A DNA stretch of 64,000 nucleotides from Candidatus Omnitrophota bacterium (GCA_043822665.1 JBDRBM010000034.1:3757-67756); one strand, 5' to 3'; positions 8,781-61,321 are shown, counted from the stretch's first letter. Made by a program: numbers and translations. Notes: a model not told the origin generated them from the sequence alone.

Positions 8781-8964
8781 CATAACTTAACTTTATAGTA
8801 TAGGAAATTCCTTTTATTGTACAAACGTTTGTCATTGCGAGGCCGAAGGCCGAAGCAATCTCAAGAGATCCTTCGGATACTCCTTTTAGTCGTATCCTCA
8901 GGATAAATTCACACTTATAACTTACGCTCCTTACAGTCGCGTAAGTTATGTGCTCATTTAATTT
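8781..8964 (+). repeat. Intergenic structured repeat, long form (copy 1), abutting the infA start codon
   Basis: CATAACTTAAC left end, AGTATAGGAAATTCCTTTT box, ATTGCGAGGCCGAAGGCCGAAGCAAT hairpin and TAAATTC-hairpin-GTGCTCATTTAATTT right end. About 85% identical to 12561-12788 apart from one indel. Confidence 0.8.
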
Positions 8965-9183
8965 ATGGCAAAAGAAGAAGCAATAGAAGTTGAGGGCACG
9001 GTCTCAGAAGCACTGCCTAATGCCATGTTCAGGGTGGAGCTGGAGAATGGGCATAAGGTACTTGCCCATGTTTCAGGTAAGATGAGAATGTATTTTATAA
9101 AGATTCTTCCCGGCGACAAGGTAAAGCTGGAACTCTCGCCCTATGATTTGACGAGAGGGAGAATAACCTACAGGGCTAAGTAA
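8965..9183 (+). CDS. infA: Translation initiation factor IF-1
   Basis: 72 aa. [34 protein letters not shown]. Confidence 0.97.
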
Positions 9184-9204
9184 ACGAGGACATGAGCTAG
9201 TAAT

Positions 9205-9318
9205 ATGAAAGTCAAACCGTCAGTAAAGCCAATTTGCGATAAATGTAAGATTGTGAAGCGCAAGCGCATTATAAGGATAATCTGTATAAATCCTAAGCAT
9301 AAACAGCGTCAAGGATAG
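9205..9318 (+). CDS. rpmJ: 50S ribosomal protein L36
   Basis: Below the ORF-track length cutoff; found by hand translation from ATG 9205. [37 protein letters not shown], stop TAG at 9316-9318. Cys3-His Zn pattern; lies between infA and rpsM as usual. Confidence 0.93.
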
Positions 9319-9441
9319 TATGTCGCGTAGCAAATGAACATGGCGCATCGTACAGAGCATTACCGTGTGTTAAAGATACAATAATATATAGGGCATCACA
9401 AAAGTGCCGCCCTAAAATATAAAATAGAGAGGTGTTGAACC

Positions 9442-9837
9442 ATGGCGCGAATTTCAGGCATAGATTTACCAAAGGAGAAACGTATAGAGATAGCCCTGAC
9501 CCATATTTATGGCCTGGGCCGTCCTTCTTCGAACATGATATTGAAGGCCGCGGGTGTTAATCCTGATACAAGGACAAAGGATCTTAAAGAAGAAGAGATT
9601 TCCAGAATAGCCGCGATAATACAGAAAGAATATAAGGTTGAGGGTGACTTAAGAAGAGACGTCTCTCAGAATATAAAACGCCTTGTAGACATAGGGTCGT
9701 ACCGAGGGTTTAGGCATAGAAGGTCATTACCTGTAAGAGGGCAAAGGACGAAGTCAAATGCCAGGACAAGAAAAGGCCCAAGAAAGACCGTAGGTGTGAC
9801 CAGAAAAGGAAAGACCCAGGCAGCGCCGGAGGCATAG
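9442..9837 (+). CDS. rpsM: 30S ribosomal protein S13
   Basis: [27 protein letters not shown]. Confidence 0.96.
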
Positions 9838-9855
9838 TAACCGGAGGATATAAAA

Positions 9856-10242
9856 ATGGTTGAAAAAAAGAAGACAAAGAAAAAGGCGGCGAAAAACATA
9901 ACGAGCGGAATAGCTCATATCTTTGCCACTTTTAATAATACAATCGTTACGATAACAGACAGACAGGGCAATGCGGTTGTGTGGTCTAGCTGCGGGTCTG
10001 TTGGTTTTAAAGGTTCAAAAAAGTCAACGCCGTTCGCCGCCCAGGTTACAGCAAAAAGCGCCGCGAAGAAGGCGCTTGAACACGGCCTCAAAGAAGTGGA
10101 GGTCTATGTAAAAGGGCCTGGGTCTGGCAGAGAGTCGGCAATAAGAGCAATACAGGCGGCAGGTTTGCGAATCAGTGCGATCAGGGATGTTACACCTATT
10201 CCCCACAATGGCTGCAGGCCGCCGAAGAGACGAAGGGTGTAA
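9856..10242 (+). CDS. rpsK: 30S ribosomal protein S11
   Basis: [22 protein letters not shown]...[14 protein letters not shown]. Confidence 0.96.
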
Positions 10243-10283
10243 GATCGGTTTAACCAACATTGGGAGTATATTAGGGAGAAAAC

Positions 10284-10913
10284 ATGGCTAGATACACGGG
10301 ATCATCATGCAGGGTTTGCAGGAGAGAAGGCCAGAAGATTTTTTTAAAGGGCACAAGGTGCTACACGGATAAATGCGCTTTTGACAGAAGAAGCTATGCT
10401 CCTGGGCAGCACGGCAAGCGTAAGCGCTTCAAAATGTCTAACTATGGGCTGCAGCTTAGGCAGAAACAGAAAGTAAAGAAAATTTATGGAGTGCTGGAGA
10501 GGCAGTTTAGAAAATATTTTTATGTAGCCAACCGCTCGAAGAGCATTACAGGAGAAAAACTTTTGGAGCTCTTGGAGAGAAGACTGGACAATGTTATATT
10601 CAGGGCTTGTTTTGCTTTTTCCAGGACACACGCAAGGCAGATGGTCATGCATGGACATGTCCTTGTAAACAAAAGAAAGGTAGATATCCCTTCCTATTCA
10701 GTCAAGACAGGAGATATTGTGCAGCTTAAACAAAAGGAAAAACTTGTCAAAAACGTGAAGGAGACAATAGATAAAGTAAAAGATAGAAGCGTCTCTGATT
10801 GGTTAAAGAGCGATTTTGAAAATCTCAAGGTCGATATCATTCGCCTTCCAAGAAGAGATGATGTCGGCATGGATATACAGGAGCAGTTAATAGTGGAATT
10901 GTATTCAAAATAA
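10284..10913 (+). CDS. rpsD: 30S ribosomal protein S4
   Basis: MARYTGSSCRVCRREGQKIFLKGTRCYTDKCAF; 209 aa. Confidence 0.96.
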   Translation: MARYTGSSCRVCRREGQKIFLKGTRCYTDKCAFDRRSYAPGQHGKRKRFKMSNYGLQLRQKQKVKKIYGVLERQFRKYFYVANRSKSITGEKLLELLERRLDNVIFRACFAFSRTHARQMVMHGHVLVNKRKVDIPSYSVKTGDIVQLKQKEKLVKNVKETIDKVKDRSVSDWLKSDFENLKVDIIRLPRRDDVGMDIQEQLIVELYSK

Positions 10914-11007
10914 ATTCGCACCTTCATAGAAGTAGAACAGAGAAGATACGGTTACGAAAATCTTTGATTTTTATAACCGTAGTGCTCATTAAAAGGAGGA
11001 TTGACAA

Positions 11008-11994: not shown

Positions 11995-12560
11995 GGCACA
12001 AAAGACACGTCGTAAGGTTTGGTAGGCAGAGGAGTCATTATAAGGCTACTATGCGCCATCTGGTATCAGGCCTTATCATTAATAAAAGCATTTGCACTAC
12101 AAAGGTAAAGGCCAAGGAGACTTCCAGGCTTGCCGAAAAATTAGTCACTATAGCGAAAGAAAAAAATGTAAACAACCAAAGAAAGGCCTTTGATGTCTTA
12201 CGCAGCAAGGGCTTGGTTTCCATCCTGTTTAACGAGATCGCCCCGTTATTCAAAGAAAGAAACGGAGGCTATACCAGGGTTTTGCTGACCAGGAGAAGAC
12301 ATGGCGATAACGCGCAAATGGCAATACTCGAGTTTGTAGAAAAGCCAAAATCCGAAACCACCGAAAATAAAGAAAAGAAAAAAGCGGCTATTAAGCCTGT
12401 GCCGAAGGCAGAGCCTGCGCTAAGAGAGGGGCCTATCCAGAAGAAGGAAGAACAGAAAAGACCAATACAGCCGCCAAAGGCTCAGCCTGAGAAACCCAAA
12501 AGGCCTCAGCCAAAACCCGGATTTTTTAGAAAAATATTCGGACAGAAAAAAGGCATGTAA
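11991..12560 (+). CDS. rplQ: 50S ribosomal protein L17 with a long K/P/E-rich C-terminal extension
   Basis: MRHKRHVVRFGRQRSHYKATMRHL and an L17 core. The last ~70 aa are low complexity (KPKSETTENKEKKK...PKRPQPKPG). Confidence 0.93.
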   Translation: MRHKRHVVRFGRQRSHYKATMRHLVSGLIINKSICTTKVKAKETSRLAEKLVTIAKEKNVNNQRKAFDVLRSKGLVSILFNEIAPLFKERNGGYTRVLLTRRRHGDNAQMAILEFVEKPKSETTENKEKKKAAIKPVPKAEPALREGPIQKKEEQKRPIQPPKAQPEKPKRPQPKPGFFRKIFGQKKGM

Positions 12561-12788
12561 CATAACTTGATATAATAGGATTTTCCTTTTGTTGTACAAA
12601 CGCTTGTCATTGCGAGGCCGAAGGCCGAAGCGACCGAGGACGAAATGTCCGAGGAAGTGCCGAGCCCTCCGGGCGAGGCCAATCTCAAGAGATCCTTCAG
12701 TAGCTCCTATTTGTCGCTGCTTCAGGATAAATTCGCACTTATCACTTACGCTCCTTTCAGGAGCGTAAGTGATGTGCTTATTTAACTT
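12561..12788 (+). repeat. Intergenic structured repeat, long form (copy 2), with a 48-nt GC-rich insertion
   Basis: Collinear with 8781-8964. The extra segment 12632-12679 is inserted inside the GC hairpin. Starts 1 nt after the rplQ stop. Confidence 0.8.
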
Positions 12789-12883
12789 GTCGCATGGAAT
12801 ACAATGTTCGATGCTGGATGCCCGTAAAAGATAATCGAGCATCAAGAGAAGAAAGCTGATACACAGAAGCGAGAGATACAAAA

Positions 12884-14050
12884 ATGGAACTTTCTTCACG
12901 TGTAAAAAATGTATCCGCTTCATTGACGCTTGCTATAACGGCCAAGGCCAAGAAGATGAAACAGAACGGCATTGACGTTATAGATTTTGGTTCCGGTGAA
13001 CCAGATTTTGACACGCCGATTCAAATTAAAAACGCCGCCATAAAGGCCATAAAGAAAGGCCTGACAAAATATACACCCGCCTCAGGCACAGATGAATTAA
13101 AACAAGCTATTTGTAATAAACTTCAAAGAGATAACGATTTAAGTTACGCGCCTTCCCAGATAGTTGTTTCCTGCGGCGCAAAGCACTCCATCTATAATAT
13201 TATCCAGGTCATATGCGATAAGGGTGACGAGATTATAATGCCCTCGCCCTACTGGCTCAGCTATCCTGAAATGGTAAGACTGGCCGAAGGCATCCCGGTT
13301 TTTATTGATACAACTGAAAAAAACGGGTTTAAGGTGTCAATAGATAAATTATCCACAGCCATAACAAAAAAAACAAAGGCGCTTATATTAAACAGCCCCT
13401 CGAATCCGACAGGATGCGCCTATAGCCTTAGTGAACTAAAGGGCATAGCGGAAATAGCTGTCAAAAAAAATATCCTGGTTATAAGCGATGAGATCTATGA
13501 AAAGATTATATTCAACGGCAGGCAGCATATTTCAATAGCTTCTATAAATAAAGAGATCTTTAAAAATACAGTCATTGTTAATGGTGTTTCGAAAAGTTTT
13601 GCTATGACAGGCTGGCGCATAGGCTATATCGCATCCTGTAACGACGCGCTGGTTTCCGCAGTAAAAAACTTGCAGAGTCATTCTACGTCTAACCCCTCTT
13701 CTATAAGCCAGGCAGCTGCCCTTGAGGCTGTAATGGGAGGCGATTCAAGTATAAGGGGCATGGTAATGGAATTTGAGAAGAGAAGGGATTATATTGTAAA
13801 AAGGGTCAATGCTGTCAAAGGGTTAACCTGCTTTATGCCTGAGGGCGCGTTTTATGTTTTTTGTAAGATAGGCAAAAGAGGATTGACTGGGATTAGATTA
13901 AGCGAACTGCTTTTAGAAGAGGCCCGGGTCGCTGTTGTGCCTGGCGAACCCTTTGGTTCCGGGATGCATATTAGGCTCAGCTTTGCCACCAGCATGGATA
14001 ATATCCGCGAAGGGATGGATAGAATAGAGGAATGGTTTAGGAAACAATAA
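12884..14050 (+). CDS. Class-I PLP-dependent (aspartate-type) aminotransferase
   Basis: GSGEPDFDTP, LNSPSNPTG, and GVSKSFAMTGWRIGY (PLP lysine motif). 388 aa. Confidence 0.88.
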   Translation: MELSSRVKNVSASLTLAITAKAKKMKQNGIDVIDFGSGEPDFDTPIQIKNAAIKAIKKGLTKYTPASGTDELKQAICNKLQRDNDLSYAPSQIVVSCGAKHSIYNIIQVICDKGDEIIMPSPYWLSYPEMVRLAEGIPVFIDTTEKNGFKVSIDKLSTAITKKTKALILNSPSNPTGCAYSLSELKGIAEIAVKKNILVISDEIYEKIIFNGRQHISIASINKEIFKNTVIVNGVSKSFAMTGWRIGYIASCNDALVSAVKNLQSHSTSNPSSISQAAALEAVMGGDSSIRGMVMEFEKRRDYIVKRVNAVKGLTCFMPEGAFYVFCKIGKRGLTGIRLSELLLEEARVAVVPGEPFGSGMHIRLSFATSMDNIREGMDRIEEWFRKQ

Positions 14051-14088
14051 GCTTTCAGCAGGTGATAACCAAAAGACGAAGACTAAAG

Positions 14089-15381
14089 ATGCCAGGAAAG
14101 ACAATAACCGAAAAAATATTTAGCGCTCATTACGGCAAAGATGTCAAGGCCGGAGATGTAGTTGTATGTGATATAGATTTTTGCTTTGGCCAGGATGGGA
14201 CAAGTTCGCTTATAATAGATTCTTTTGATAAGCTGGAGGTTAAAAAGGTTTTTAATAAGAATAAATTCTGTATGGTGATAGACCATAGCGCGCCAAGTCC
14301 AAACATAGGTGTTTCAGGCGTGCACCAGAAGATGAGAAATTTTGCCCAAAAACACGGTGTTAGGATTTTTGATATTGGCTGTGGGGTGTGTCATCAGGTA
14401 ATACCCGAGTCTGGCCTGGTTTCCCCCGGCGATCTGGTTATTGGCGCGGATTCGCATACCTGCACTTATGGCGCGCTCGGAGCTTTCTCAACCGGCATGG
14501 GTTCAACTGACCTGGCAGTGGCCTTGGCCTCGGGAAAGAATTGGTTTAAGGTCCCTGAGACAATAAAGATTATTCTGAAAGGCAGGACAAAAAAAGGGGT
14601 TTATTCCAAGGACGTCATGCTCCATATCATTGGGGAGCTTGGCGCGGATTATGGCACATATAAGACGGTTGAATTTTCCGGAGAGTATATAAAAAGGCTT
14701 TGCATGGACGCGAGATTTACTATTGCTAACATGGCTATAGAGATGGGCGCAAAGGCCGGCATAATAGAGCCGGATAACATTACGCGAGAATATATCAAAA
14801 AAAGGAAGAACACAAAATCCGATGGCGTGTTTTATAAGAGCGATAAGAACGCGGTTTATTCCGAGGTCTTGGAGTATGACGCTGGCAATATCGAACCGCA
14901 GATCGCAAAACCGCATACCGTAGACAATGTCACGCCCATAAGAAAGATTAAAGGCGTAAGGATAGACGAGGCTTTTATAGGGACATGCACCAACGGAAGG
15001 ATTGAGGATTTAAAGATAGCGGCGTCTATATTAAAGGACAGGCGCGTGCATAGGTATGTCAAATTGATAATCGCGCCAGCATCCAGGTCGATTTTTGAAG
15101 AGGCTGTGAAAAAAGGATTTATCTCTACGTTTATCAAGGCGGGCTCATGCGTTGTTTCTCCTGGCTGCGGCCCGTGCGTTGGGACTCATAATGGAGTATT
15201 GGCAAAAGGAGAAAACGCTATTTCTACAGCCAATAGGAATTTTAAAGGCCGAATGGGCAATCCAGAGGCGTTTATATACTTAGCGTCACCTGCTACAGTC
15301 GCGGCATCAGCGATTGAAGGGAAGATAACAGATCCGAGAAAATATTTAAAAAGTAAGGGGGCAAAATGGACCTCAAAATGA
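14089..15381 (+). CDS. Aconitase-family dehydratase large subunit (LeuC/HacA type)
   Basis: ~430 aa. Fe-S ligand motifs IGTCTNGR and SPGCGPCVG; ends ASPATVAASAIEGKITDPR. ATG at 14089 is preferred over the upstream GTG. Substrate (isopropylmalate, homoaconitate or aconitate) cannot be read from sequence. Confidence 0.85.
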   Translation: MPGKTITEKIFSAHYGKDVKAGDVVVCDIDFCFGQDGTSSLIIDSFDKLEVKKVFNKNKFCMVIDHSAPSPNIGVSGVHQKMRNFAQKHGVRIFDIGCGVCHQVIPESGLVSPGDLVIGADSHTCTYGALGAFSTGMGSTDLAVALASGKNWFKVPETIKIILKGRTKKGVYSKDVMLHIIGELGADYGTYKTVEFSGEYIKRLCMDARFTIANMAIEMGAKAGIIEPDNITREYIKKRKNTKSDGVFYKSDKNAVYSEVLEYDAGNIEPQIAKPHTVDNVTPIRKIKGVRIDEAFIGTCTNGRIEDLKIAASILKDRRVHRYVKLIIAPASRSIFEEAVKKGFISTFIKAGSCVVSPGCGPCVGTHNGVLAKGENAISTANRNFKGRMGNPEAFIYLASPATVAASAIEGKITDPRKYLKSKGAKWTSK

Positions 15382-16418
15382 TTCTTAAAGTCGCGAGCGA
15401 GAAAAAGGCATCTGATTTGCACATAACTACTGACTCGGTGCCTATCGTGAGGATTGACGGCCGCCTTATACCTTTATCAGATTTCCCTGTGCTCAACAAA
15501 GATGACTGCAAGCGCTTGGTGTACAGCATATTAAACGATAAGCAGAAGGCTATTTTTGAAAGAGACCTAGAGCTCGATTTTTCATTAGAGATATCTGGCT
15601 TGAACAGGTTCAGGATAAACGCGCACATGCAGCGGGGCAGTGTAGAAGCCGCGTTTAGAATGGTGTCTCTGCGCATAAAAGAAATAAGTGAATTGGGCCT
15701 GCCGCCTATAGTGCCTGAATTGTGTCATAGGACACAGGGCCTTATTCTTATTACAGGTCCTACGGGCGTGGGAAAAACCACGACTCTGGCAGCCATGGTC
15801 AACCTTATAAATACCGAACGCCAGGCAATAATTATTGTAATAGAGGATCCTATCGAATATGTGCACAGCAATAAGCGCAGCATAATAAAACAAAGAGAAG
15901 TCTATTCGGATACCAGGTCTTTTGCCAATGCCTTGACGCATGCGCTAAGGCAGGATCCAAATATAATAGTAGTAGGCGAACTTAGGGATCTTGAGACAAT
16001 ATCCACTTGCCTTACTGCGGCAGAAACAGGCCACCTTGTTCTGGCAACATTGCATACACCTGATGCCTCACAGACAATAGACAGGATAATAGATGTCTTT
16101 CCGCCATATCAGCAGCAGCAGATCAAGATACAGCTTTCAGGAACGCTTCAGGCTGTTGTCTCGCAGCAACTTTTACCCAGGATAGACAGGCCTGGCAGGG
16201 TTCTCGCTACAGAGGTAATGATTGCTACGCCGGCTATCAAAAATCTTGTACGTGAACATGAGACAGAACAGCTTCTGACGCATATACAGACCGGCTTTCA
16301 GTACGGCATGCATACAATGGATAAGTCTCTAAAAAATTTGTATCAAAAAGGTATTATAAGCGAGGACACGTTCAAGAATTATATAAAAAACCCGGAAGAC
16401 ACAAAGGTTCTAAAATGA
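15366..16418 (+). CDS. pilT: Type IV pilus retraction ATPase PilT
   Basis: 350 aa. ASDLHITTDSVPIVRIDG, Walker A GPTGVGKTTTLAAM, IIVVGELRD and GHLVLATLHT. Overlaps the upstream gene by 16 nt and the downstream gene by 4 nt. Confidence 0.9.
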   Translation: MDLKMILKVASEKKASDLHITTDSVPIVRIDGRLIPLSDFPVLNKDDCKRLVYSILNDKQKAIFERDLELDFSLEISGLNRFRINAHMQRGSVEAAFRMVSLRIKEISELGLPPIVPELCHRTQGLILITGPTGVGKTTTLAAMVNLINTERQAIIIVIEDPIEYVHSNKRSIIKQREVYSDTRSFANALTHALRQDPNIIVVGELRDLETISTCLTAAETGHLVLATLHTPDASQTIDRIIDVFPPYQQQQIKIQLSGTLQAVVSQQLLPRIDRPGRVLATEVMIATPAIKNLVREHETEQLLTHIQTGFQYGMHTMDKSLKNLYQKGIISEDTFKNYIKNPEDTKVLK

Positions 16419-16912
16419 AGGGGATTGCATTTAAGTTTCAGGATGATATCAATACAGATCTTATAATCTCGGGCAGGTACAAGTTTTCAATAACTGACCC
16501 GAACGAACTGGCGAAACACGTGTTTGAGGACGCTGACCCTGATTTTTACAACAGGCTTCAAGGCAGACAGTTTTTTGTCGCGGCAGGCAAAAATTTTGGA
16601 TGCGGTTCATCGAGAGAACAGGCTCCGATAGCCATAAAATACGCAGGCTGCCATGCCGTACTGGCCAAGAGTTTTGCCAGGATATTTTACAGGAACGCGT
16701 TTAATCTTGGATTGCCGCTTATAGAATGTGATACTGATAAAATAGCAAATAATGACGTTATCCAGGTTGACCTTGAAAAAGGCTTAGTAAATGGCGTGGA
16801 CAAGGCTTATTCTTTGAGGATAAAGCCTTTCAATGAACTCCAAAAGACATTGATCAAAGAAGGCGGCCTTGTAAATCTGTATAAAAAATACGGCGGATTG
16901 AGAATAAAATAG
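16415..16912 (+). CDS. Aconitase-family dehydratase small subunit (LeuD/HacB type)
   Basis: 165 aa; swivel-domain motif AGKNFGCGSSREQAP. Confidence 0.86.
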   Translation: MKGIAFKFQDDINTDLIISGRYKFSITDPNELAKHVFEDADPDFYNRLQGRQFFVAAGKNFGCGSSREQAPIAIKYAGCHAVLAKSFARIFYRNAFNLGLPLIECDTDKIANNDVIQVDLEKGLVNGVDKAYSLRIKPFNELQKTLIKEGGLVNLYKKYGGLRIK

Positions 16913-16915
16913 AAT

Positions 16916-17035
16916 CATAACTTAACTTGATATAGTAGGAAATTCCTTTTTGTAGGCACACATTAGTAGGGGACCCTTAAGGGTCCCCTACTAATGTGCT
17001 TAACTTGCATTGTAAGTTTCGTCAAGTTAAGCATG
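16916..17035 (+). repeat. MITE-like intergenic repeat, short form (copy A)
   Basis: Ends CATAACTTAACTTGA ... TCAAGTTAAGCATG are inverted. Internal AGGAAATTCCT box and an 18-bp perfect hairpin (16959-16998, loop TTAA). The first 79 nt are near-identical to 21181-21259. Confidence 0.8.
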
Positions 17036-17069
17036 CTTATAGCATTTTTATAAATTTTGGAGGGTCAAA

Positions 17070-47686: not shown

Positions 47687-50497
47687 ATGAAGAATTTTGC
47701 GAAAAAGGTATTCATAATTTTTTTTATCGCTACTTTTTTAAATCATTTAATAACCCCTTCGTTTTCGTATACTGGGATACCAAATTTTTTATTAGAGTTA
47801 GGAATCAAAGACTATGAGGATGGAAATTACAACGCGGCGCTAAGTGAATTCAATAAAGTTCTTTTAGTTGAACCTGGACATGAATTGGCTAAAGAATATA
47901 TAAAAAAGATTAGAGGGACGGTTGATGACACACAAAAAGAGACTGCGCCTTCTCCGCAACATGAAAAACTTTCCGGAGAGCTTTTAAGAGAACAGGAAGG
48001 TTTTGTCGAAAAGGCTTCTATCACCGTACCCTCTCCTCCTGTAAGCAAGAAAACCCTTTTGCCTCAAACACGCTTTGACCAGCCTAAAGAATATACTACT
48101 GCTGCTGCAGGAAAAGAGGAGAAGAAAAAAGTAATTGATAGGCTATATTTAGACAGGGGGAGCCTTGAATTAATCTTTATGCCTATAAAGATAGAAGAGG
48201 GTCGCAGCATTATTATTGAGGGGAATAATATAATTCGTTTCTTAGAGGTTACGCCAAATATTATTAATGCTGAAAAGATGTCTCGTGATGAAATTCAGAT
48301 CATAGGCAAGAATATAGGTTTTACGTATCTGCATATTTGGGATAAAAATGGGCGTTGGACAGTTTATTTTCAAGGCTTGCTTCCTAAGCCCACAGGCCCA
48401 ACATTAGAAGAAGAAATGCGCTTAGCTGAACAAAGGGCATCTACTTTCAAATTGCGTTATTCCACGGATTGGTTTTTATTTGAGGAAGGCAGGAGATTGA
48501 ATTCTTTGGATAGACAGTCTTATTCCTATGGTCATTCTTTTTCTCTAACAGGCGAGACGCCTTATGGGAATTTTGCAGGGGATGCCCAGATTAGGACTTC
48601 TCAAGAGACCACGGATTTAACCTATTTATCCTTGAGATTAAGAGACGGTAGATTTGGCCCTTTCGAGGATTTTAATCTTAGGGGATTTGATTTTGGCCTG
48701 CCATTTTCCAACCTTGCTTACGGAGGCGCTGGCTTAAGAGGCATTATGCTGGAGTCACCTGCTTTTGACAAAAAAATAAATTATACTGTATTTTGGGGGA
48801 GAGAGGGCGGCGGCAGATATGGCGGACTTTCTCCAGGCTTACTCGAGACAAAAGATTCTTTTTTAAGAGGCCTTGATATTAATTATCTGCCTTCAGAAAA
48901 TCTGGATTATGGATTTTCTTATTTTTATGGCTGGGGAGCTGATAGAGAGGAGTACTTAAATCCTCAATCGTATGATGGGAGAATAAATTACCATTTTCCT
49001 AATCTGGACTTAGGTTATGAAATAAGCAATGATTCAAAGAAATACGCCCATTTGATAAAATCAGCTTATAGTCTCCCAAAACTGAAACTTACCGCTGAAT
49101 TTCGGGATATTGATAAGGACTTTAAAAGCATTACAGGTTTTGGCTGGCATCTAGGGGAGATAGGAGGGCTTTTTACAGCGCATTATCTTCCTTTCGCGAC
49201 TACACGAATCTTTAGCAGGTTGGATGTTTACAAAGACAGGCTATTTCCAAATCCTGACAAAGGGGATAGGCTGAACTTAGATTATAGTGTTGATTTGACC
49301 CAGGACCTAACCTCTTCCAGTGTATTGAGATTAGATTATAACATCCAGGATGAGCAGGGAAATATATCTCCCCGCAGATTTCAAGCCACGGGAGTGTCTT
49401 TAAATAAATCCTATGATTTTATGAAAGGCCTGTCTCTATACCTTGGTTATCGCAATAGCATCAGTACAAACTTTACATCGCCTAGCTTGGATTACAAAAA
49501 CGACAAATTATCCACGGGGTTAAGGCTTAATCTTATAGGCAATCTTTACTATTACCTCAATAAAGAGGTAAATTGGCTGGAAGAGACGTTTACCGGGATA
49601 GGCTCTCGTCCAGAAGCGCTGGAAATGGGATTTGATTGGTATTATCAAGTATTTGACAGCCCTTTTTATAGCACAATGCGGATTGCTTATCGCGATGAAG
49701 AAGACGCGTTTTCTTCTGTTAGTTTTCTAAGCGGGGAAGACTATATAGAAGGATACGGCGAGATTTCTTATCACCCAAATCCAGACACTGAGATGTATTT
49801 TTCTACGCGAGTGCGTAATGTCTGGGCTGATAGCCCTATAATAGACAAGCGCGTGGAATTTGAGTTGAGGACTGGATTGCGGTATCTTTTTGATACAGGG
49901 TGGAGCTGGAGTTCAGTCGGTTCAATAGAAGGATGTGTTTTTAACGACTTGAATAGCGATGCAATAAGACAGAGTAACGAACCCGGCATGGAAGATGTAA
50001 AGTTATATTTAGGTAAAGATATGGTTCAAGTTAGTGATAGCCAGGGGTATTATCAATTCAAGAAAGTGAGAGCAAAAAAAGTATCAATAGCCATAGATCC
50101 CTCAACATTGCCTCCAGGTTTTGTTTTAACTACATCAGAGGTGCGGGAGGTAGATATAATCCACAATAGAACAGCACGATTAGATTTTGGAGTTGTATCG
50201 CGTTCTGATATCACTGGGATTGTATTTGAGGACTTAAATGCAAATGGCAAGTTTGACTTTAATGATAAAGGCATAGGGAAGGTTATTATTACGCTTGACG
50301 ATGGACAGGTCGCGACTACCAACGGTGCCGGGAGTTATATATTTAGAAATGTTGCGGTAGGCGATCATACTCTTTTTCTGGATATAAACAGCGTGCCTCT
50401 CTATCTTCTGCCGCAAGTTCCCCTTATTAAAAAAATCACCCTTTTCGAGGGGTTATCTTACCAGCATAACATTCCCTTGAGAAAGGGTACGGATTAA
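47687..50497 (+). CDS. Large outer-membrane-type protein: TPR, CpaC/RcpA-N-like domain, predicted beta-barrel and two C-terminal SdrD-B/Cna-B-like repeats
   Basis: Signal/TM MKNFAKKVFIIFFIATFLNHLITPSFS. TPR-like YEDGNYNAALSEFNKVLLVEPGH. IKIEEGRSIIIEGNNIIRFLEVTPNIINAEKMSRDEIQIIGKNIGFTYLHIWDKNGRWTVYF (approx 48164-48376) fits the pilus-secretin N-terminal domain pattern. About 500 aa are aromatic/Gly-rich with alternating hydrophobicity. The C-terminal repeats GCVFNDLNSD...EPGMEDVKLYL...SDSQGYYQF and GIVFEDLNANGKFD...IGKVIITL...TNGAGSYIF start at approx 49919. No secretin or usher motifs were recognised. Confidence 0.7.
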   Translation: MKNFAKKVFIIFFIATFLNHLITPSFSYTGIPNFLLELGIKDYEDGNYNAALSEFNKVLLVEPGHELAKEYIKKIRGTVDDTQKETAPSPQHEKLSGELLREQEGFVEKASITVPSPPVSKKTLLPQTRFDQPKEYTTAAAGKEEKKKVIDRLYLDRGSLELIFMPIKIEEGRSIIIEGNNIIRFLEVTPNIINAEKMSRDEIQIIGKNIGFTYLHIWDKNGRWTVYFQGLLPKPTGPTLEEEMRLAEQRASTFKLRYSTDWFLFEEGRRLNSLDRQSYSYGHSFSLTGETPYGNFAGDAQIRTSQETTDLTYLSLRLRDGRFGPFEDFNLRGFDFGLPFSNLAYGGAGLRGIMLESPAFDKKINYTVFWGREGGGRYGGLSPGLLETKDSFLRGLDINYLPSENLDYGFSYFYGWGADREEYLNPQSYDGRINYHFPNLDLGYEISNDSKKYAHLIKSAYSLPKLKLTAEFRDIDKDFKSITGFGWHLGEIGGLFTAHYLPFATTRIFSRLDVYKDRLFPNPDKGDRLNLDYSVDLTQDLTSSSVLRLDYNIQDEQGNISPRRFQATGVSLNKSYDFMKGLSLYLGYRNSISTNFTSPSLDYKNDKLSTGLRLNLIGNLYYYLNKEVNWLEETFTGIGSRPEALEMGFDWYYQVFDSPFYSTMRIAYRDEEDAFSSVSFLSGEDYIEGYGEISYHPNPDTEMYFSTRVRNVWADSPIIDKRVEFELRTGLRYLFDTGWSWSSVGSIEGCVFNDLNSDAIRQSNEPGMEDVKLYLGKDMVQVSDSQGYYQFKKVRAKKVSIAIDPSTLPPGFVLTTSEVREVDIIHNRTARLDFGVVSRSDITGIVFEDLNANGKFDFNDKGIGKVIITLDDGQVATTNGAGSYIFRNVAVGDHTLFLDINSVPLYLLPQVPLIKKITLFEGLSYQHNIPLRKGTD

Positions 50498-50781
50498 CGG
50501 ACGTAGAATGTGTAAAGGTTGTGCCTTGTTTCCTGCTGTACCAATTGAGGTTTTAAGCTAGAGTCTTCTTCTTTTGTTCCTTCCTCAGCTTCTTCCAGGA
50601 TATTTACATCTCGGTAGGTTTGTTCTTCAACGAGCGGCGCGTTTAATCCAGGAATCTCTGGTATGCTGCAAGATACAGGTATGGAATGGCTTGCCTTTCC
50701 CGCATACGAAGCGTTAGCCGTAAAACATAAAACCATCAAACCTATTAGAATCAATAGGGTTATGCGAGGTATTTTTTTCAT
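50494..50781 (-). CDS. Small secreted protein (95-aa precursor), function unknown
   Basis: GAGGTGAG SD before the ATG at 50781. Signal peptide MKKIPRITLLILIGLMVLCFTANASYA. Acidic middle region; ends LYTFYVR. Its stop codon overlaps the stop of the convergent 941-aa gene by 2 nt. Confidence 0.7.
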   Translation of the reverse strand: MKKIPRITLLILIGLMVLCFTANASYAGKASHSIPVSCSIPEIPGLNAPLVEEQTYRDVNILEEAEEGTKEEDSSLKPQLVQQETRHNLYTFYVR

Positions 50782-50837
50782 TGTTCTCACCTCTTTTTTG
50801 AAATCATACTTCAAAAAGGGTGAGAACCTGTTCAAAT

Positions 50838-50880: not shown

Positions 50881-50990
50881 GCCCAAGTTTACCTGGACTA
50901 CGGCAGCCTGACAGCCTTATCTTTTTGAGATTTAGGCTCAAGGCTTTGCGCCCTACCCTTTCGAAGTAGTTAGCCTTTCCTGATTTTCAA
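50881..50990 (-). promoter_or_regulatory. Candidate class I c-di-GMP riboswitch (GEMM-I) aptamer
   Basis: The minus strand reads GGAAAGGCUAACUACUUCGAAAGGGUAGGGCGCAAAGCCUUGAGCCUAAAUCUCAAAAAGAUAAGGCUGUCAGGCUGCCGUAG. Features seen: a GAAA-capped hairpin, the GCGCAAAGCC core, a CCUAAA receptor-like element and a 3' GGCUGCCG. These are in the same order as the Vc2-type aptamer I recall from memory. Confidence 0.6.
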
Positions 50991-51007
50991 AGATTTCTCC
51001 TAATTAA

Positions 51008-51246: not shown

Positions 51247-52494
51247 ATGGAGCCATTGATGCAGAGATATTTTTCTCGTAGCTTCGTATTAGTATCTATT
51301 ATTATATCAATTGTCTTCCTGATAAATACCAGATATATATATTCTGTATCACTCAAAGACGATGCGGAATCATATCGCGATGAGGGGTATAAAGCCCAGC
51401 AAACAGGGAAAATAGACGAGGCTATTTCATGGTATCAGAAAGCAGCCAGCCTTGATCCTAACTATGCGGCGCCGCACAATGACCTTGGTATTCTTTTTGA
51501 ATCAAAGGGCTGGCTTGATCGCGCGGAGGCTGAGTACACGGAGGCTGTTTCTATAGACAGTAATTACGCAAAGGCACATACTAATCTAGCGCTTCTTTAT
51601 GAAAGAAAGGGAGAGCTTGAAAAGGCCGCCTTTCATTGGATGAGGCGCTATAAGCTCGGCACACCGCAAGACCCATGGACAGAAGAGGCTAAACAGAGGC
51701 TAGAAAAAATCGGTTTATTAAAAAAAGAGGATACTGCTAAAGCGGCTGTAAAACAGCCTTTGCCTAAAGTGGAACAAATAGCCAAAGAAAGCATTTTTAA
51801 AAAACCCGCTAAGGCAGAAAAAACAAAATACGCATCAGGCGAATGGACATTGATTGGTTCAATGCGCGAACCTTCTGAAAAGAAAAAAACAGGAGCAGAA
51901 ACTAAACAGGCGTCGCGCCGGGAGAAATCAGATCTTGACAGAGATTCCCTTGACGAATCCCTTAGGCTGGCAGAAGAGAGATTAAGACAGGAGAAAGAGA
52001 GAGACGTAAAAGTAAAGCTGATAGAAGAAAAACCCTCTACCGCAAAAAGGTTTGCGGGAAGGGAGATAGATGTCGAGCAGGCGGCTAGTAATAAAAAATC
52101 AGACCTTGATAAAGAGCTGCGGGAATCCCTTAGGCTGGCAGAAGAGAGATTAAGACAGGAGAAAAAGAAAGACGTAAAAGCAAAGCCAATAGAAGAAAAA
52201 CCCTATACCGTAAAAAGGCCTGAATCAGAATATAGCGCCGGGCGTTATTACCAAAAAGCCAATAATTATTTTGCAAAAGGAGAGTATTCCAGGGCGCTTG
52301 ACACAATAAGGTCTGCGAAAAAAACTTACCCGGATGATAAGGGCCTGCTGAGCCTGGAAGAATCCGTAAAAAACAAGATGAAAGAAGAGAGGATAAAGGA
52401 TTATTATAACGAAGGCTTGATGCGTTACCGCGAAAATAATTTTTCAGGCGCAAGGAAAGAATTTGAGGCGATATTAAATATATTGCCAGAATAA
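51247..52494 (+). CDS. Membrane-anchored TPR protein with a duplicated charged 56-aa segment
   Basis: N-terminal TM FVLVSIIISIVFLINT. TPR repeats (YRDEGYKAQQTGKIDEAISWYQKAASLDPNYAAPHNDLG..., a further TPR near the C-terminus). Internal repeat SDLD..ESLRLAEERLRQEK..DVK.K.IEEKP.T.KR occurs twice. Confidence 0.75.
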   Translation: MEPLMQRYFSRSFVLVSIIISIVFLINTRYIYSVSLKDDAESYRDEGYKAQQTGKIDEAISWYQKAASLDPNYAAPHNDLGILFESKGWLDRAEAEYTEAVSIDSNYAKAHTNLALLYERKGELEKAAFHWMRRYKLGTPQDPWTEEAKQRLEKIGLLKKEDTAKAAVKQPLPKVEQIAKESIFKKPAKAEKTKYASGEWTLIGSMREPSEKKKTGAETKQASRREKSDLDRDSLDESLRLAEERLRQEKERDVKVKLIEEKPSTAKRFAGREIDVEQAASNKKSDLDKELRESLRLAEERLRQEKKKDVKAKPIEEKPYTVKRPESEYSAGRYYQKANNYFAKGEYSRALDTIRSAKKTYPDDKGLLSLEESVKNKMKEERIKDYYNEGLMRYRENNFSGARKEFEAILNILPE

Positions 52495-52578
52495 TTTCCC
52501 CTTCCAATTTTTACAGATTTTCTGAAAACATCATGTATCCCAATAAAAATCTCAAATGATCGTTACCCCGGACAAACT

Positions 52579-55913: not shown

Positions 55914-55932
55914 CCGGAGATGGGGGCGGCTT

Positions 55933-57198
55933 ATGACTGTAACTCAAAAACTGGATATTGAAAAATTAAAATCTATTAAAATAGCGGAACTAAACAAAAT
56001 AGCTCGAGAGCTGAATGTGAACGGCGTGAGCAGCTTAAAGAAGCAAGACCTTATATTTAAGATACTTCAGGCTCAGACAGAACGAGCCGGCCTCATATTC
56101 GGTGAAGGCGTGTTAGAAGTACTGCCTGATGGTTTCGGGTTTTTACGCTCCCCTAATTACAATTACCTCCCGTGCCCCGACGATATATATATATCGCCTT
56201 CGCAGATAAAAAAGTTTGCGTTGCGTACCGGAGATACTGTGAGCGGGCAGATAAGGCCTCCCAAGGAAGGCGAAAAGTATTTTGCGCTTCTGAAAGTGGA
56301 GGCCGTGAATTTTGAAAGCCCTGAATCATCCAAGGACAAGGTATTGTTTGATAACCTGACGCCTCTTTATCCGAACCAGAGATACAAGCTTGAAATAAAA
56401 AACAGTGACCTTACAACCCGCGTGATGGATTTATTGACACCTATTGGAAAAGGGCAGAGAGGCATGATAGTAGCCCCGCCTTACAGCGGCAAGACCATTA
56501 TCATGCAAAAGGTAGCAAATAGTATAGCTGAGAATCACCCTGATACTATTATTATAGTGCTTCTCATAGATGAAAGGCCTGAAGAGGTCACAGACATGCA
56601 GAGGACCGTCAAGGGCGAAGTGATTAGTTCCACATTCGACGAACCGGCAGAGAGGCATGTTCAAGTCGCTGAGATGGTGCTTGAAAAAGCAAAAAGACTT
56701 GTTGAACACAAAAAAGATGTGGTAATCCTTTTGGATAGTATAACCCGGCTCGCGCGGGCGTATAATACAGTAGTTCCTCATTCTGGCAAAATACTCTCAG
56801 GCGGCGTGGACTCAAGCGCGCTTCACAAGCCCAAAAGGTTTTTTGGCGCGGCAAGAAATATCGAAGAAGGCGGAAGCCTGACTATCATAGCTACAGCACT
56901 GGTTGATACAGGCAGCCGCATGGACGAAGTTATATTCGAGGAATTTAAAGGTACCGGTAACATGGAAACACAGCTTGACAGGAATCTTTTTCAGAGAAGG
57001 GTATACCCCGCAATTGATATAAAAAGGTCCAATACCAGAAAAGAAGAACTTCTTCTGGAAGAAAAAGAGCTGCAAAGGATATGGATATTAAGGAAGGTCT
57101 TGAATGAGCTTAACAGCGTAGAGGCAATGGAGCTCTTGCTCGAAAAACTTCGCAAGACAAAAACAAACGAAGAATTCCTGGAGAGCATGAATCATTAA
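55933..57198 (+). CDS. rho: Transcription termination factor Rho
   Basis: N-terminal [30 protein letters not shown] and [13 protein letters not shown]; 421 aa. Confidence 0.96.
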
Positions 57199-57206
57199 GT
57201 GAGGAC

Positions 57207-57241
57207 ATATTTTATGTCAATCAAAGATTGACATAAAATAT
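57207..57241 (+). terminator. Perfect 16-bp hairpin directly after rho (terminator-like, no U-tract)
   Basis: ATATTTTATGTCAATC-AAA-GATTGACATAAAATAT. Confidence 0.5.
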
Positions 57242-57424
57242 AAGTCCGAACTTACCCCGAGCCGCTATGATTCTGGATAACATGCGGCGAGGGATTGCAG
57301 AATAAAAGATCACCCCTCGTAACTCAATAAAAAAATTATGGTTACTCGGGGTTAATTCGCGCGTGACTTATGTTCGCTCGTTTCACTCGCTCCATAAGTC
57401 ACGCGCTCATTAAAGGAGGCTGAC

Positions 57425-57631
57425 ATGAAACCAAAGATTCATCCTGATTACAAAGAGGCGACAATTATCTGCGCGTGCGGGGAGGTCATACATACCCGCT
57501 CAACAAAACAGAATATACGCGTGGAGATTTGTTCAAAATGCCACCCGTTTTTTACAGGCAAACAGAAATTTATAGATTCGGCTGGCAGGGTGGAGAAATT
57601 CCTTAAGAAATATAAAAAAAAGGATACATAA
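57425..57631 (+). CDS. rpmE: 50S ribosomal protein L31 (Zn-binding type)
   Basis: [27 protein letters not shown]...[13 protein letters not shown]. Confidence 0.95.
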
Positions 57632-57731
57632 AACCGCATGTCGCATAGCGCCCTTCGACGTTACTCAGGGCAGGCAAATCGCATAGCGCATGGCGTAAAG
57701 GTAAATACCATACAGTTCACTCTTAAAAACT

Positions 57732-58799: not shown

Positions 58800-58821
58800 C
58801 TTACGGGTGGGATTGAGTTAA

Positions 58822-59694
58822 GTGACCATGAGAAACACAGTGACTTTACAAAAAAGGCCGATGAATCTAATAAACAAATATGCCGAAGTTATACCTCGGT
58901 TTGAAATAGAGGAATTGTTGGCGTATTTATTTAATTGCGATAAAACAGATTTGTATACAAAAGATTTACCTGTGGATAGGGAGATTGAGTTGTTATTTGA
59001 TTCTTTGGTTCTAAAGCGCCTGGCAGGTGAGCCTTTGCAGTATATTATTGGCCGCACCGACTTTATGGGGCTGGATTTTAGGGTGCAAACGGGAGTTTTT
59101 ATACCTCGTCCTGAGACAGAGCTGCTTGTAGCTAATGCGCTATCAGCTATCAGTTGTCAGTTATCACAAAAAACTTCGGTTAGAATTCTGGACCTATGCA
59201 CAGGTTCTGGATGTATCGCTATAAGTCTGGCGAAAAACATTCCCGCGGCGGAAATAATTGCTATAGACATTTCAGAGAGAGCGTTGGATACAGCGAGAGA
59301 AAATGCCGTCATTCACAATGTGGCTGAAAGGATAAAGTTTTATAAAGGCGATCTTTTTGAAGGTTTAGTGTTCGATAAAAAGGATAAATTTGATATAATA
59401 GTGTGCAATCCGCCATATATTAAGAATAGCGATATAGGACTGTTGCAGCTAGAAGTCAGGCAGGAGCCTGAGAGCGCGCTAGGCGGCGGGACTGACGGAT
59501 TAGAATTTTACAGGCAGGTATCTGATCACGCCCCGCGGTATTTGAAACAGGGATGTTCGATATTTTTAGAAATAGGCGCTGATCAATTTCAGGATGTAAA
59601 AGATATTTTTCGCACCAAGAGTTTCTATTGTCTAAAAGGAGTAAAAGAAGATTTCGCGGGCATTAAGAGGGTTATATGGATAGATTTATTATAG
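58822..59694 (+). CDS. prmC: Release factor glutamine methyltransferase
   Basis: VCNPPYI motif; follows prfA. The start is either GTG 58822 or ATG 58828. Confidence 0.9.
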   Translation: MTMRNTVTLQKRPMNLINKYAEVIPRFEIEELLAYLFNCDKTDLYTKDLPVDREIELLFDSLVLKRLAGEPLQYIIGRTDFMGLDFRVQTGVFIPRPETELLVANALSAISCQLSQKTSVRILDLCTGSGCIAISLAKNIPAAEIIAIDISERALDTARENAVIHNVAERIKFYKGDLFEGLVFDKKDKFDIIVCNPPYIKNSDIGLLQLEVRQEPESALGGGTDGLEFYRQVSDHAPRYLKQGCSIFLEIGADQFQDVKDIFRTKSFYCLKGVKEDFAGIKRVIWIDLL

Positions 59695-60941
59695 AAGGCG
59701 GAGAGAAGCTGAGAGGGACCGTGGAATTGAGCGGCGCCAAGAATGCCGCGTTGCCGATACTCGCGGCTACGCTTCTGACAGATTCCAAATCCATTATAAA
59801 AAACGTGCCGCCCTTGCGTGATGTATACACAATGCTTAGGATCATGCGTGTCCTTGGGGTTAAGGTAGGCATGGAAGACGGCATAATTACAGTAGAACCC
59901 CGAGGTTATTCTAATTGCACGGCACCCTATAAGCTTGTCAGCACCATGAGAGCGTCTATATGCGTCTTAGGGCCTGTACTTGCCAGGCTGAAACGAGCGG
60001 AAGTTTCTATGCCTGGAGGCTGTGTTATTGGGCCAAGGCCTATTGATTTGCATATTAAAGGTCTGCGCTCCATAGGAGCAGACATAAAAATAGAACGCGG
60101 CTATATCATAGCCAAAACCAAACAGTTGAGAGGGGCAAGGGTGTATCTTGGCGGAAATTTTGGTTCAAGTGTGCTGGCGACAGCAAACCTGATGATGGCC
60201 GCCACCCTTGCGAAAGGGAAGACAATTATAGAAAACGCTGCCTGCGAACCAGAGGTCTGCGACTTAGCGGATTTTCTAATAAAGATGGGGGCTAAGATAA
60301 AAGGACATGGAACGCCTGTTATAGAGATTGAGGGTGTAAAGGCCCTTCACGGCGCGGAATATTCCATAATAAATGACAGGATAGAGGCTGGGACTTTTAT
60401 GATCGCCTCGGCTATTACAGGAGGAGATATTATTATAAAACATGCCAGAGTGGAGGATTTAGGCGCGGTTATAGACAAACTGCAAAATACAGGGACAAAA
60501 ATAACCAGGATAAAGGATGGCCTGCGGGTAAGGGCGGCGAATTACTTGAAGCCTGTAGATGTAGCGACTTTACCGTATCCTGGATTTCCAACAGATATGC
60601 AGGCGCAGATGATGGCGCTGATGAGTGTAACAAAAGGTATAAGCGTGATAACAGAAAAAATTTACCCTGAAAGATTTATGCATATTAGTGAACTTGCAAG
60701 GATGGGCGGGCAGATTATGCTGGAGGGGCCAAGCGCAATAGTCAAAGGCGTGCCCAGATTAAGCGGCGCGCCGGTAATGGCATCTGATTTAAGGGCCTCT
60801 GCCGCGTTGATACTTGCCGGCCTTGTGGCCAAAGGCCGAACAGAAATATCAAGGATATATCATTTGGATAGGGGGTATCACAAGATAGAGGAAAAACTGG
60901 AAAAATTAGGCGCAAAGATCAGGCGCGAAAAAGAAGATTAA
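59676..60941 (+). CDS. murA: UDP-N-acetylglucosamine 1-carboxyvinyltransferase
   Basis: MDRFIIEGGEKLRGTVELSGAKNAALP; catalytic loop MPGGCVIGPRPIDLH. Confidence 0.95.
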   Translation: MDRFIIEGGEKLRGTVELSGAKNAALPILAATLLTDSKSIIKNVPPLRDVYTMLRIMRVLGVKVGMEDGIITVEPRGYSNCTAPYKLVSTMRASICVLGPVLARLKRAEVSMPGGCVIGPRPIDLHIKGLRSIGADIKIERGYIIAKTKQLRGARVYLGGNFGSSVLATANLMMAATLAKGKTIIENAACEPEVCDLADFLIKMGAKIKGHGTPVIEIEGVKALHGAEYSIINDRIEAGTFMIASAITGGDIIIKHARVEDLGAVIDKLQNTGTKITRIKDGLRVRAANYLKPVDVATLPYPGFPTDMQAQMMALMSVTKGISVITEKIYPERFMHISELARMGGQIMLEGPSAIVKGVPRLSGAPVMASDLRASAALILAGLVAKGRTEISRIYHLDRGYHKIEEKLEKLGAKIRREKED

Positions 60942-60975
60942 TTTGGGTATCAAGTGCTCATTAAAGGAGGTTTAA

Positions 60976-61215
60976 ATGTCGGTAAGGATAAGGTTAAAAA
61001 GATTTGGCACAAAAAAGAAACCACATCAAAGGATTGTGGTGTGTGATAAAAAACGCGCCAGGGATGGTAAGACAATAGATGAAATAGGTTATTATGACCC
61101 GTCTAAAAACCCTCCCTTAGTATTAGTTGATAAAGATAGGGCCAAGTATTGGTTGTCAAAAGGCGCGCAGCCTTCGGAAATAGTCCACAGTATATTTAAA
61201 AAACAAGGTATATAG
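60976..61215 (+). CDS. rpsP: 30S ribosomal protein S16
   Basis: MSVRIRLKRFGTKKKPHQRIVV; 79 aa. Confidence 0.95.
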   Translation: MSVRIRLKRFGTKKKPHQRIVVCDKKRARDGKTIDEIGYYDPSKNPPLVLVDKDRAKYWLSKGAQPSEIVHSIFKKQGI

Positions 61216-61321
61216 AGAATTGTTTGGAGATCCCTCGTCCGCCTATGGCGGACTCGGGATTAAATTCGCGCCATACCTTACACTCCCTTCGGTCGTGTAA
61301 GTTATGAGCTCATTTAACTTT

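Follow-up and report, generated by a model that had tools for sequence, protein, structure and literature searches.

What is conserved directly in front of the start codons of several translation genes in Candidatus Omnitrophota? The question arose from a 64-kb stretch of DNA of this phylum (64,000 nucleotides, GCA_043822665.1 JBDRBM010000034.1:3757-67756; the window, below). There a sequence-only reading had described four copies of a hairpin cassette (8903-8964, 12724-12788, 57349-57419 and 61256-61321) abutting start codons, and had taken them for a selected RNA structure acting as a 5' stabiliser, a processing hairpin or a shared translational operator. All four copies are present, on the + strand, and the core of the description held: a conserved structured cassette with covarying stems has its 3' end directly on the Shine-Dalgarno sequence (SD) or start codon of the next gene. 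Our analysis suggests, with about even confidence, that the cassette belongs to a family of modular palindromic intergenic DNA repeats conserved in Candidatus Omnitrophota, built like the bacterial interspersed mosaic elements (BIMEs) of E. coli but not of the REP family, which serves as punctuation of gene boundaries. The evidence consists of the anatomy of the repeat, the covariation and Watson-Crick pairing of its arms, its phylum-wide spread, its flush and polar placement, and the copying of its modules between loci. Omnitrophota are widespread and uncultured, their cells are mostly ultra-small, and to our knowledge nothing is known of the control of their gene expression.

Architecture of the repeat

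The conserved unit is longer than the cassette first described. The full repeat measures about 100-130 nt and consists of two adjacent hairpins, P1 and P2; the hairpin noted earlier is P2, and the additional P1, closed by AUCCY/RGGAU, lies directly 5' of it. P2 is 59-63 nt long and reads AAAU-UC-GCNN-bulge-10 bp-UC-apex-UC-10 bp-NNGC-UC-AUUUAA, that is, an outer stem AAAU/AUUU, a 2x2 internal loop UC/UC, a stem GCNN/NNGC, a bulge of 1-2 nt in the 5' arm, a stem of 9-11 bp with ACUUAYG/CRUAAGU, a second UC/UC loop and a small apex, with the consensus termini GGATAAATTCGC...GCTCATTTAA. The flanks of the cassette are conserved, as had been said, but they are not unpaired: TAAAT pairs with ATTTA, and GC(N)N with (N)NGC. 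Because the P2 design is fixed and paired, the strings TAAATTCGC and GTGCTCATTTAA, noted separately, are the two sides of the basal part of one hairpin. Similarly, the sequence TCCYTNCNG exists but is not a simple loop, being the second TC/TC loop plus a mini-apex. For P1, an exact 5-nt closing complement was found within 110 nt in 102 of 153 copies (about 10% by chance); the lengths of P1 fall into clusters of 31-42 and 53-62 nt, and a UC/UC loop is present in 43 of the 102. P2 comes in two subtypes, A (AAAUUCGC...GCUCAUUUAA) and B (UAAGUUCGG...CCUCACUUA). A coding role for P2 was rejected, there being no conserved frame and the lengths of 59-63 nt shifting the frame, as was mimicry of the anti-SD by CUCC loops, which are only a UC bubble plus the closing C.

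P2 was modelled from a hand-anchored, gap-free seed from which a covariance model was built; these were used in place of an unanchored MAFFT alignment with RNAalifold, which gave a poor structure of 7 pairs. The combined cassette pattern is not a chance occurrence, with no matches in 100 shuffles and covariance model scores of 51-77 bits (E 1e-10 to 1e-17) for the four copies, and the folding of each copy region gave z-scores of -5.4 to -7.9 against shuffled sequence. The short flank motifs alone are at chance level in the window, GCTCATTTAA with at most one mismatch occurring 9 times (8.5 expected) and TAAATTCGC 28 times (27 expected).

With the covariance model, five full copies of the P1+P2 repeat and two remnants were found in the window (Table 1). 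Pfam confirmed the identities of infA, rpsD, rpoA, rplQ, a class I/II aminotransferase, rho, rpmE, rpsP and trmD. That the cassette abuts start codons is true for infA, trmD and, by way of the SD, rpmE, where the SD AGGAGG (57414-57419) directly follows P2 and the ATG is at 57425; it does not hold for the aminotransferase, whose start at 12884 lies 98 nt past copy 2. A start without SD at 0-3 nt had been claimed for infA and trmD; the former fits, with 3 nt, and the latter also lacks an SD, at 4 nt. Between copy 2 and the aminotransferase gene is a 21-codon upstream open reading frame (uORF; 12795-12860) without SD, which begins 9 nt past P2. The fifth copy, complete with its own P1, is inverted and spans 57195-57294 (-), so that the rho stop codon TAA (57196-57198) lies within the outer stem of its P2, at the TTAAGT end. 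The string GTGCTCATTAAAGGAGG at rpoA and rpsP, previously noted as supplying the SD, is no independent motif and belongs to a degenerate copy and to an internally deleted copy, respectively. The rpsP remnant holds the stop codon of the preceding gene and adjoins the SD, and in another genome (locus L111) a full copy stands at the orthologous place 5' of rpoA.

Table 1. Copies, remnants and companion modules of the repeat in the window
Feature	Position	Strand	Remarks
Modules A and B, companions of copy 1	8781..8862	+	same modules at 12556-12690 before copy 2
P1 hairpin, copy 1	8868..8904	+	AUCCU-UC-GGAUAC..GUAUCC-UC-AGGAU
P2 subtype A, copy 1	8901..8961	+	76.1 bits; infA ATG 8965, 3 nt beyond end, without SD
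Degenerate copy 5' of rpoA	10910..10999	+	termini TAAATTCGC (10911) and GTGCTCATTAAAAGGAGG (10982) retained; interior is another hairpin
P1 hairpin, copy 2	12692..12728	+	directly 5' of P2
P2 subtype A, copy 2	12725..12785	+	77.1 bits; 21-codon uORF next, aminotransferase ATG 12884
P2 subtype B, inverted fifth copy	57195..57257	-	53.3 bits; GGGUAAGUUCGGAC..GUCCUCACUUAA
P1 hairpin, inverted copy	57254..57294	-	+ strand reads CCC-GA-GCCGC..GCGGC-GA-GGG
P1 hairpin, copy 3	57312..57352	+	ACCCC-UC-GUAAC..GUUAC-UC-GGGGU
P2 subtype A, copy 3	57349..57414	+	53.1 bits; outer stem UUAAU/AUUAA, one pair shorter on both sides
Collapsed remnant 5' of rpsP	60935..60965	+	GATTAATT..GTGCTCATTAAA, inner stem deleted; 13 bits, E 1.3
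P1 hairpin, copy 4	61240..61260	+	AUCCC-UC-GUCCGCC..GGCGGAC-UC-GGGAU
P2 subtype A, copy 4	61257..61317	+	51.1 bits; trmD ATG 61322, 4 nt on, without SD

Distribution across Omnitrophota

An exact-pattern scan of species-representative genomes gave at least 118 loci, and the figures below hold among the matches listed; L-numbers denote these 8-kb loci of other genomes, in which open reading frames (ORFs) were called crudely. Of the 118 listed loci, 115 come from about 90 Omnitrophota-type assemblies (species-level genomes), most of them labelled Candidatus Omnitrophota or Omnitrophica and the remainder being third-party metagenome-assembled genomes (MAGs) labelled uncultured Planctomycetia, Planctomycetales or bacterium. 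The three listed matches from other phyla were not recovered by the covariance model, which found 155 copies in the window and the 118 listed loci together, about 35 of them off the search pattern. The element is essentially absent from viral contigs, and a viral origin was rejected, the one weak IMG/VR pattern match (23.8 bits) being taken as chance. The finding of a dispersed modular repeat in about 90 genomes of one phylum does not support a gene-specific operator. Nor was a relevant family, r-protein leaders included, found in Rfam: the sole match above the gathering threshold in the window was a c-di-GMP-I riboswitch, elsewhere, and nothing relevant appeared at E up to 10 for two copies searched on both strands. 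Literature searches with 12-mers of the element, and for repeats or hairpins in Omnitrophota, found nothing relevant.

Covariation and the base-pair spectrum

Compensatory changes in the stems had been pointed out from the window copies, and they are abundant across the family. In 136 model-aligned P2 copies 96.4% of cells were paired, 16 of the 18 pairs showed changes on both sides, and there were 370 double-change cells as against 82 +/- 7.5 after column shuffling; in a second control, with the partner slid by 1-3 columns, pairing fell to 15-44%. The outer stem covaries also, as seen in copies outside the search pattern, where AAAU/AUUU becomes AAGU/ACUU or CAAU/AUUG, giving the variants UAAGU/ACUUA and UCAAU/AUUGA, while the UC/UC loops stay fixed.

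The kinds of pairs are informative. The P2 stems contained 2265 Watson-Crick pairs, 20 G·U (0.8%) and 28 A·C (1.2%). An independent symmetric alignment of the arms gave 47 G·U and 49 A·C, and P1 gave 77 and 86; the tRNA stems of those loci, taken as control, have 5.6% G·U. Copies in sense orientation to the next gene (start-flush) had 6 G·U and 8 A·C, and stop-flush copies 8 of each. A structured RNA under selection as RNA would tolerate G·U far more than A·C in the transcript; in P2, in P1 and in sense copies alike, G·U was no commoner than A·C. Since a transition in one arm appears as G·T on one strand and as A·C on its complement, equal numbers of G·U and A·C suggest a DNA-level, strand-symmetric constraint; we infer that the spectrum fits such a constraint and not selection on the sense transcript. 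The stem changes thus do not support the earlier reading as the signature of a selected RNA structure, since only Watson-Crick pairs are favoured and A·C is no rarer than G·U. A caution follows, namely that strong covariation alone is no proof of RNA structure; the base-pair spectrum here points to maintenance at the DNA level.

Placement at gene boundaries

A same-strand ORF start lies within 18 nt in 77 of 117 pattern matches. Two classes of start were seen. In the first, the ATG overlaps TTTAA or follows it after 0-3 nt, without SD (ATG within 0-3 nt in 35 copies); in the second, AGGAGG begins at base 1-3 past the element and the ATG is 8-18 nt downstream (SD beginning at most 3 nt from the element's end in 50 copies). 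The two subtypes differ in polarity, subtype A being at starts in 59 copies and at stops in 18 among the listed loci, and 9 of the 11 copies of subtype B at stops. Between a quarter and a third of all copies are reversed, antisense to the adjacent gene, and these are conserved equally well. In reversed copies TTAAAT(GA) encloses the stop codon of a convergent gene, for example groEL in L007 and an orthologous gene in L014 and L030; other reversed copies are preceded by a tRNA 3' end or a 16S gene. At L116, which has a 16S gene on the - strand (2900-5500), the leader contains two TTGACA-type promoters, a GA/GA hairpin and a canonical boxA, and an inverted P2 stands about 95 nt past the 16S 3' end, with no 23S gene directly after.

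The association with translation genes seen in the window does not extend to the family. Sixty-eight downstream proteins match 112 Pfam families, and inverted copies follow groEL, tRNAs and 16S rRNA. Among the downstream genes are acpP (5), ferredoxin-type genes (4), IF-1, L19, L24 and M48 peptidase (2 each), with SHMT (glyA), ValRS, DnaB, TIM (tpiA), S2, htpX and others as well; there is no restriction to translation genes, yet housekeeping genes with high expression predominate. Orthologous sites in different species have kept the element before acpP (five times), infA (three times) and rpmE, rplX, rplS and htpX (twice each). At rplW-rplB and rplN-rplX the element is absent from the window and present in L094, L071 and L087. 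The window itself is an array running from the S10-spc-alpha ribosomal operons through genes of tricarboxylic acid cycle-type enzymes to polA-coaE-rho-rpmE; its roughly 70 genes all lie on the + strand, separated by tiny spacers, and GC and AT skew are positive throughout (the one convincing gene call on the minus strand is described below).

Placement of this kind would be expected of an RNA cis-element, that is, of a P1+P2 transcribed between cistrons or in a 5' untranslated region and either cut by or blocking a ribonuclease in the manner of the T7 RNase III signals, leaving a protective hairpin and a short A/U-rich leader with SD and AUG exposed. The fixed, flush spacing to SD or start and the 59:18 preference of subtype A for starts fit this well, as do the position upstream of highly expressed housekeeping genes, the retention at orthologous sites, and the stable folds that leave the SD unpaired; a 22-25 bp rod with internal loops is, moreover, of the size of an RNase III substrate. 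The pairing statistics speak otherwise, since G·U does not outnumber A·C in sense copies either, as against 5.6% G·U in tRNAs; the quarter to third of copies that are antisense are conserved equally; the conserved loops would, in sense RNA, be destabilising U·C/C·U pairs; and the element matches no Rfam family. An RNA cis-element is therefore possible, if doubtful. The 5' stabiliser or processing hairpin of the sequence-only reading stays live in this form, as a secondary matter.

Mosaics and the copying of modules

Where both subtypes of P2 occur together, they are inverted relative to each other. At L010, L012, L072, L081 and L085 they form a mosaic, [inverted B]-P1-[A], with one P1 in common that is made of the GGAU heads of both P2 units; in the rho-rpmE spacer of the window (57195-57414), each P2 has its own P1. 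Modules have also been copied between loci. In MAG CAZFPS01 a P2 that is 100% identical from GGGAT to TTTAA is found at loci with unrelated flanks and P1, and in JACRLT01 an identical P1+P2 is found at three unrelated loci; at L074 two copies have the same P1, and their P2 units differ by at least four fully compensated pairs. Copies at least 95% identical make up 7% of pairs within a genome and 0.02% of pairs between genomes. Tandem arrays of the element or its fragments, at L043 1927-2086, L054 7183-7401 and L024 170-392, with periods of 98 nt, 158 nt and about 57 nt, show local duplication of modules.

Such copying raises the question whether the repeat is a non-autonomous transposon that is now spreading, either a miniature inverted-repeat transposable element (MITE) with terminal inverted repeats (TIRs) or an element mobilised by IS200/IS605 or RAYT transposases, any function being incidental. 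Identical modules at unrelated loci, tandem duplications, the hairpin-rich architecture and the presence/absence differences between species at rplW-rplB and rplN-rplX are in keeping with this idea, and a RAYT-like gene is present in one Omnitrophota MAG. However, flank matches equal the expectation from shuffled partners, so that target-site duplications are lacking, nor was a conserved target found, and the TIR-type MITE was rejected on these grounds; the GTAG/CGTC tag is missing; the RAYT-like gene has a flanking repeat of its own; and most copies are old and diverged, conserved across the phylum and retained at orthologous sites. We consider a currently spreading transposon improbable. The RAYT-like gene is present in two copies at L061 (7-396 and 2693-3655, -; NF047646, NCBIfam REP-associated tyrosine transposase, 86.7 bits), of which the complete one (2693-3655) is flanked by the 20-nt inverted repeat GGGTCAAACCTTGACATTAG, unrelated to P1/P2.

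Promoter, terminator and boxA

P2 might instead be a promoter cassette of double-stranded DNA, with -35-like ACTTAC/TTGACG, -10-like TAAGTN and the upstream A/T-rich GGATAAATT, transcription starting in the 3' arm to give a fixed short leader. The distance from ACTTAC to TAAGTN does peak at 16-17 nt, and a promoter would account for the fixed distance to SD/ATG, the highly expressed downstream genes and the DNA type of conservation. Yet no more than about half of copies have T as the sixth base of TAAGTN, because that base lies in a covarying stem; in a GC-rich clade the spacing is 13-15 nt; the rrn promoters of L116 are canonical TTGACA/TATACT; and arm covariation, P1 and the copies at stop codons are left unexplained. 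Promoter scans around the copies were at shuffle level, as were terminator scans; full sigma-70 motifs within 250 nt upstream numbered 8 against 1.6 expected, a weak signal since 6 were found on the opposite strand too. A promoter is thus very improbable. An intrinsic terminator was rejected for want of a U-tract, copy 2 alone passing the scan by virtue of TGCTTATTTA and the consensus tail being UCAUUUAA. A Nus-factor antitermination cassette of the boxB-boxA type, or an autoregulatory operator for r-proteins and initiation factors, is scarcely credible: several copies do precede infA, rpmE, rpoA and rpsP, and GTGCTCATTTAA resembles boxA (TGCTCTTTAACAA), but the motif is paired and covarying (GCNC/GNGC, AAAU/AUUU) rather than a fixed single-stranded site, the 16S (rrn) leader of L116 has a separate canonical boxA, TGCTCTTTTGACAA, which with the pairing contradicts the Nus reading, and 112 Pfam families downstream and the lack of an Rfam leader match do not suit an operator.

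Proposed punctuation of gene boundaries

How a DNA repeat might punctuate genes can be sketched as follows. A full mosaic, [inverted P2 B]-P1-[P2 A], fills the entire spacer between two genes: the upstream gene has its stop codon in the inverted unit, and subtype A ends exactly at the SD or start of the downstream one. Hairpin potential would be maintained in the DNA itself, whether by a hairpin or cruciform that forms on both strands or through strand-symmetric repair or conversion. A conserved structure-specific host protein may read the invariant T·C/C·T bubbles, the bulge in the 5' arm and the fixed length of 59-63 nt. When co-transcribed, the element would place stable hairpins just 5' of the ribosome-binding site and 3' of stops, so that punctuation may amount to end protection and insulation of the ribosome-binding site in long same-strand arrays; this is the probable reason for the conserved placement and orientation.

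Several points weigh against a DNA repeat of this kind. Polar placement relative to genes is what a function at the level of RNA or translation predicts, and co-transcription is assumed from the gene arrangement. The G·U/A·C argument is statistical, and an RNA read by a wobble-rejecting protein could yield the same numbers. Mean identity of the variable core is 0.66 within a genome and 0.61 between genomes; this similarity suggests that most copies are old, with modules copied or converted only occasionally, and a divergence of this extent does not fit a recently amplified mobile family, so that long-term selection, locus by locus, is required. No partner protein for the element was found, and no recombinase or transposase was among the 30 window proteins scanned. 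A tblastn search for a cognate RAYT with HUH sequences, made in the listed loci and not in whole genomes, gave the one RAYT-like gene with the other flanking repeat. Gene calls at the loci are, in addition, crude ORF calls.

A bolder proposal, which we think unlikely, is that a conserved structure-specific enzyme or binding protein for nucleic acids recognises P1/P2 and so punctuates very long same-strand arrays, either by organelle-like processing of polycistronic RNA to units whose ends are defined or by way of attC-like single-stranded DNA (ssDNA) sites in the core chromosome. If true, it would mean phylum-wide marking of gene boundaries, with no described bacterial counterpart. As to the repeat itself, its invariant bubbles, fixed length and position at exact gene starts and stops make it a concrete handle that is missing from Rfam and from the literature searched. 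In binning it could serve to mark the phylum, it points to true start codons, those without SD among them, and as ssDNA or RNA it could be used as bait for the factor that reads it.

Companion modules and other features of the window

Module A (35 nt, CATAACTTAACTTGATATAGTAGGAAATTCCTTTT) stands directly after five stop codons on the + strand, at 8781, 12556, 16916, 21176 and 27733. It contains an extended -10 that resembles TGnTATAAT, perfect as TGATATAAT at 12570, together with stops in several reading frames, and may be a promoter or stop module. Module B is a hairpin, GTCATTGCGAGGCCGAAGGCCGAAGCAATCTC, with a GA/GA 2x2 loop, at 8831-8862 and 12606-12690, the second of these having a 44-nt insertion; it also occurs at L008, L074 and L112, and precedes P1 in several Omnitrophota genomes. 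GTAG...CTAC palindromes (GTAGGGGACCCTTAAGGGTCCCCTAC) at 16966, 21226, 42570 and 51095 are canonical GTAG-tagged REP-like units and form a separate family.

The c-di-GMP-I riboswitch (67 bits), at 50899-50985 (-), precedes ORF 50494-50835. No other ORF on the minus strand of the window is convincing as a gene, and this one has no Pfam match. The ORF 51247-52494, for a TPR protein, contains a 96-nt direct repeat (51955-52050 and 52123-52218), with copies 93% identical at a spacing of 168 nt. An ORF for a PilT/T2SSE-type ATPase (15366-16418) stands between two aconitase-family ORFs and overlaps both, the large subunit (14062-15381) and the small (16415-16912). The segment 42659-47659 has a lower GC content (0.38) and four ORFs without Pfam match, and is preceded by a 269-nt spacer with another palindrome.

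Comparison with known systems

The REP units of Proteobacteria, 20-40 bp long, bear at one end a GTAG or CGTC tag that is unpaired (PMC3733652), and a BIME is a mosaic of such units in alternating orientation (PMC2817692). The Omnitrophota repeat shares with these families its high-copy imperfect palindromes, which are extragenic but lie in transcribed spacers between genes of the same direction (PMC2817692, PMC3733652). It shares also the two subtypes, the alternating orientation, the linker motifs and the mosaic build, the copying within a genome, and possible roles in both DNA and mRNA. It differs in that P2 is 59-63 nt rather than 20-40, with no GTAG or CGTC tag on either strand of the consensus. 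The element is, further, mostly upstream of genes and flush with SD or start (59:18 for subtype A), whereas REPs are mainly downstream of genes, and it is phylum-wide (about 90 genomes), whereas REPs are specific to a species or genus.

An attC site is a folded ssDNA hairpin with a short basal stem, a central bubble, a second stem, extrahelical bases and a long, variable terminal stem-loop. By description only, the repeat resembles it in that structure is conserved over sequence and in lying between an ORF's stop and the next start in same-strand arrays. Unlike attC, it lacks the GTTRRRY/RYYYAAC core, its termini being TTAAAT/ATTTAA, and has two or three hairpins instead of one; its copies are scattered in essential, syntenic operons of housekeeping genes (S10-spc-alpha, rho-rpmE, rpsP-trmD) and not gathered in a cassette array beside intI, and intI was not searched for.

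The RNase III signals of phage T7 are hairpins of about two turns with a conserved internal loop, placed between cistrons just 5' of the next ribosome-binding site. The hairpins of the repeat are alike in size, loop and position, a geometry that appears compatible with such processing. The T7 signals differ in acting at the RNA level in one phage, whereas the repeat has DNA-like pairing statistics and occurs in both orientations.

The ERIC/IRU, Correia (NEMIS) and mycobacterial MIRU families are intergenic repeats of 50-150 bp that lie in operons and fold in mRNA; some MIRU copies overlap the flanking stop and start codons, and ERIC and Correia have an orientation-dependent effect on mRNA stability. 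These families have TA target duplications or are direct repeats, and they are limited to a genus or family. The Omnitrophota repeat differs from them in being without target-site duplication and in having two hairpins, invariant T·C bubbles and the range of a whole phylum.

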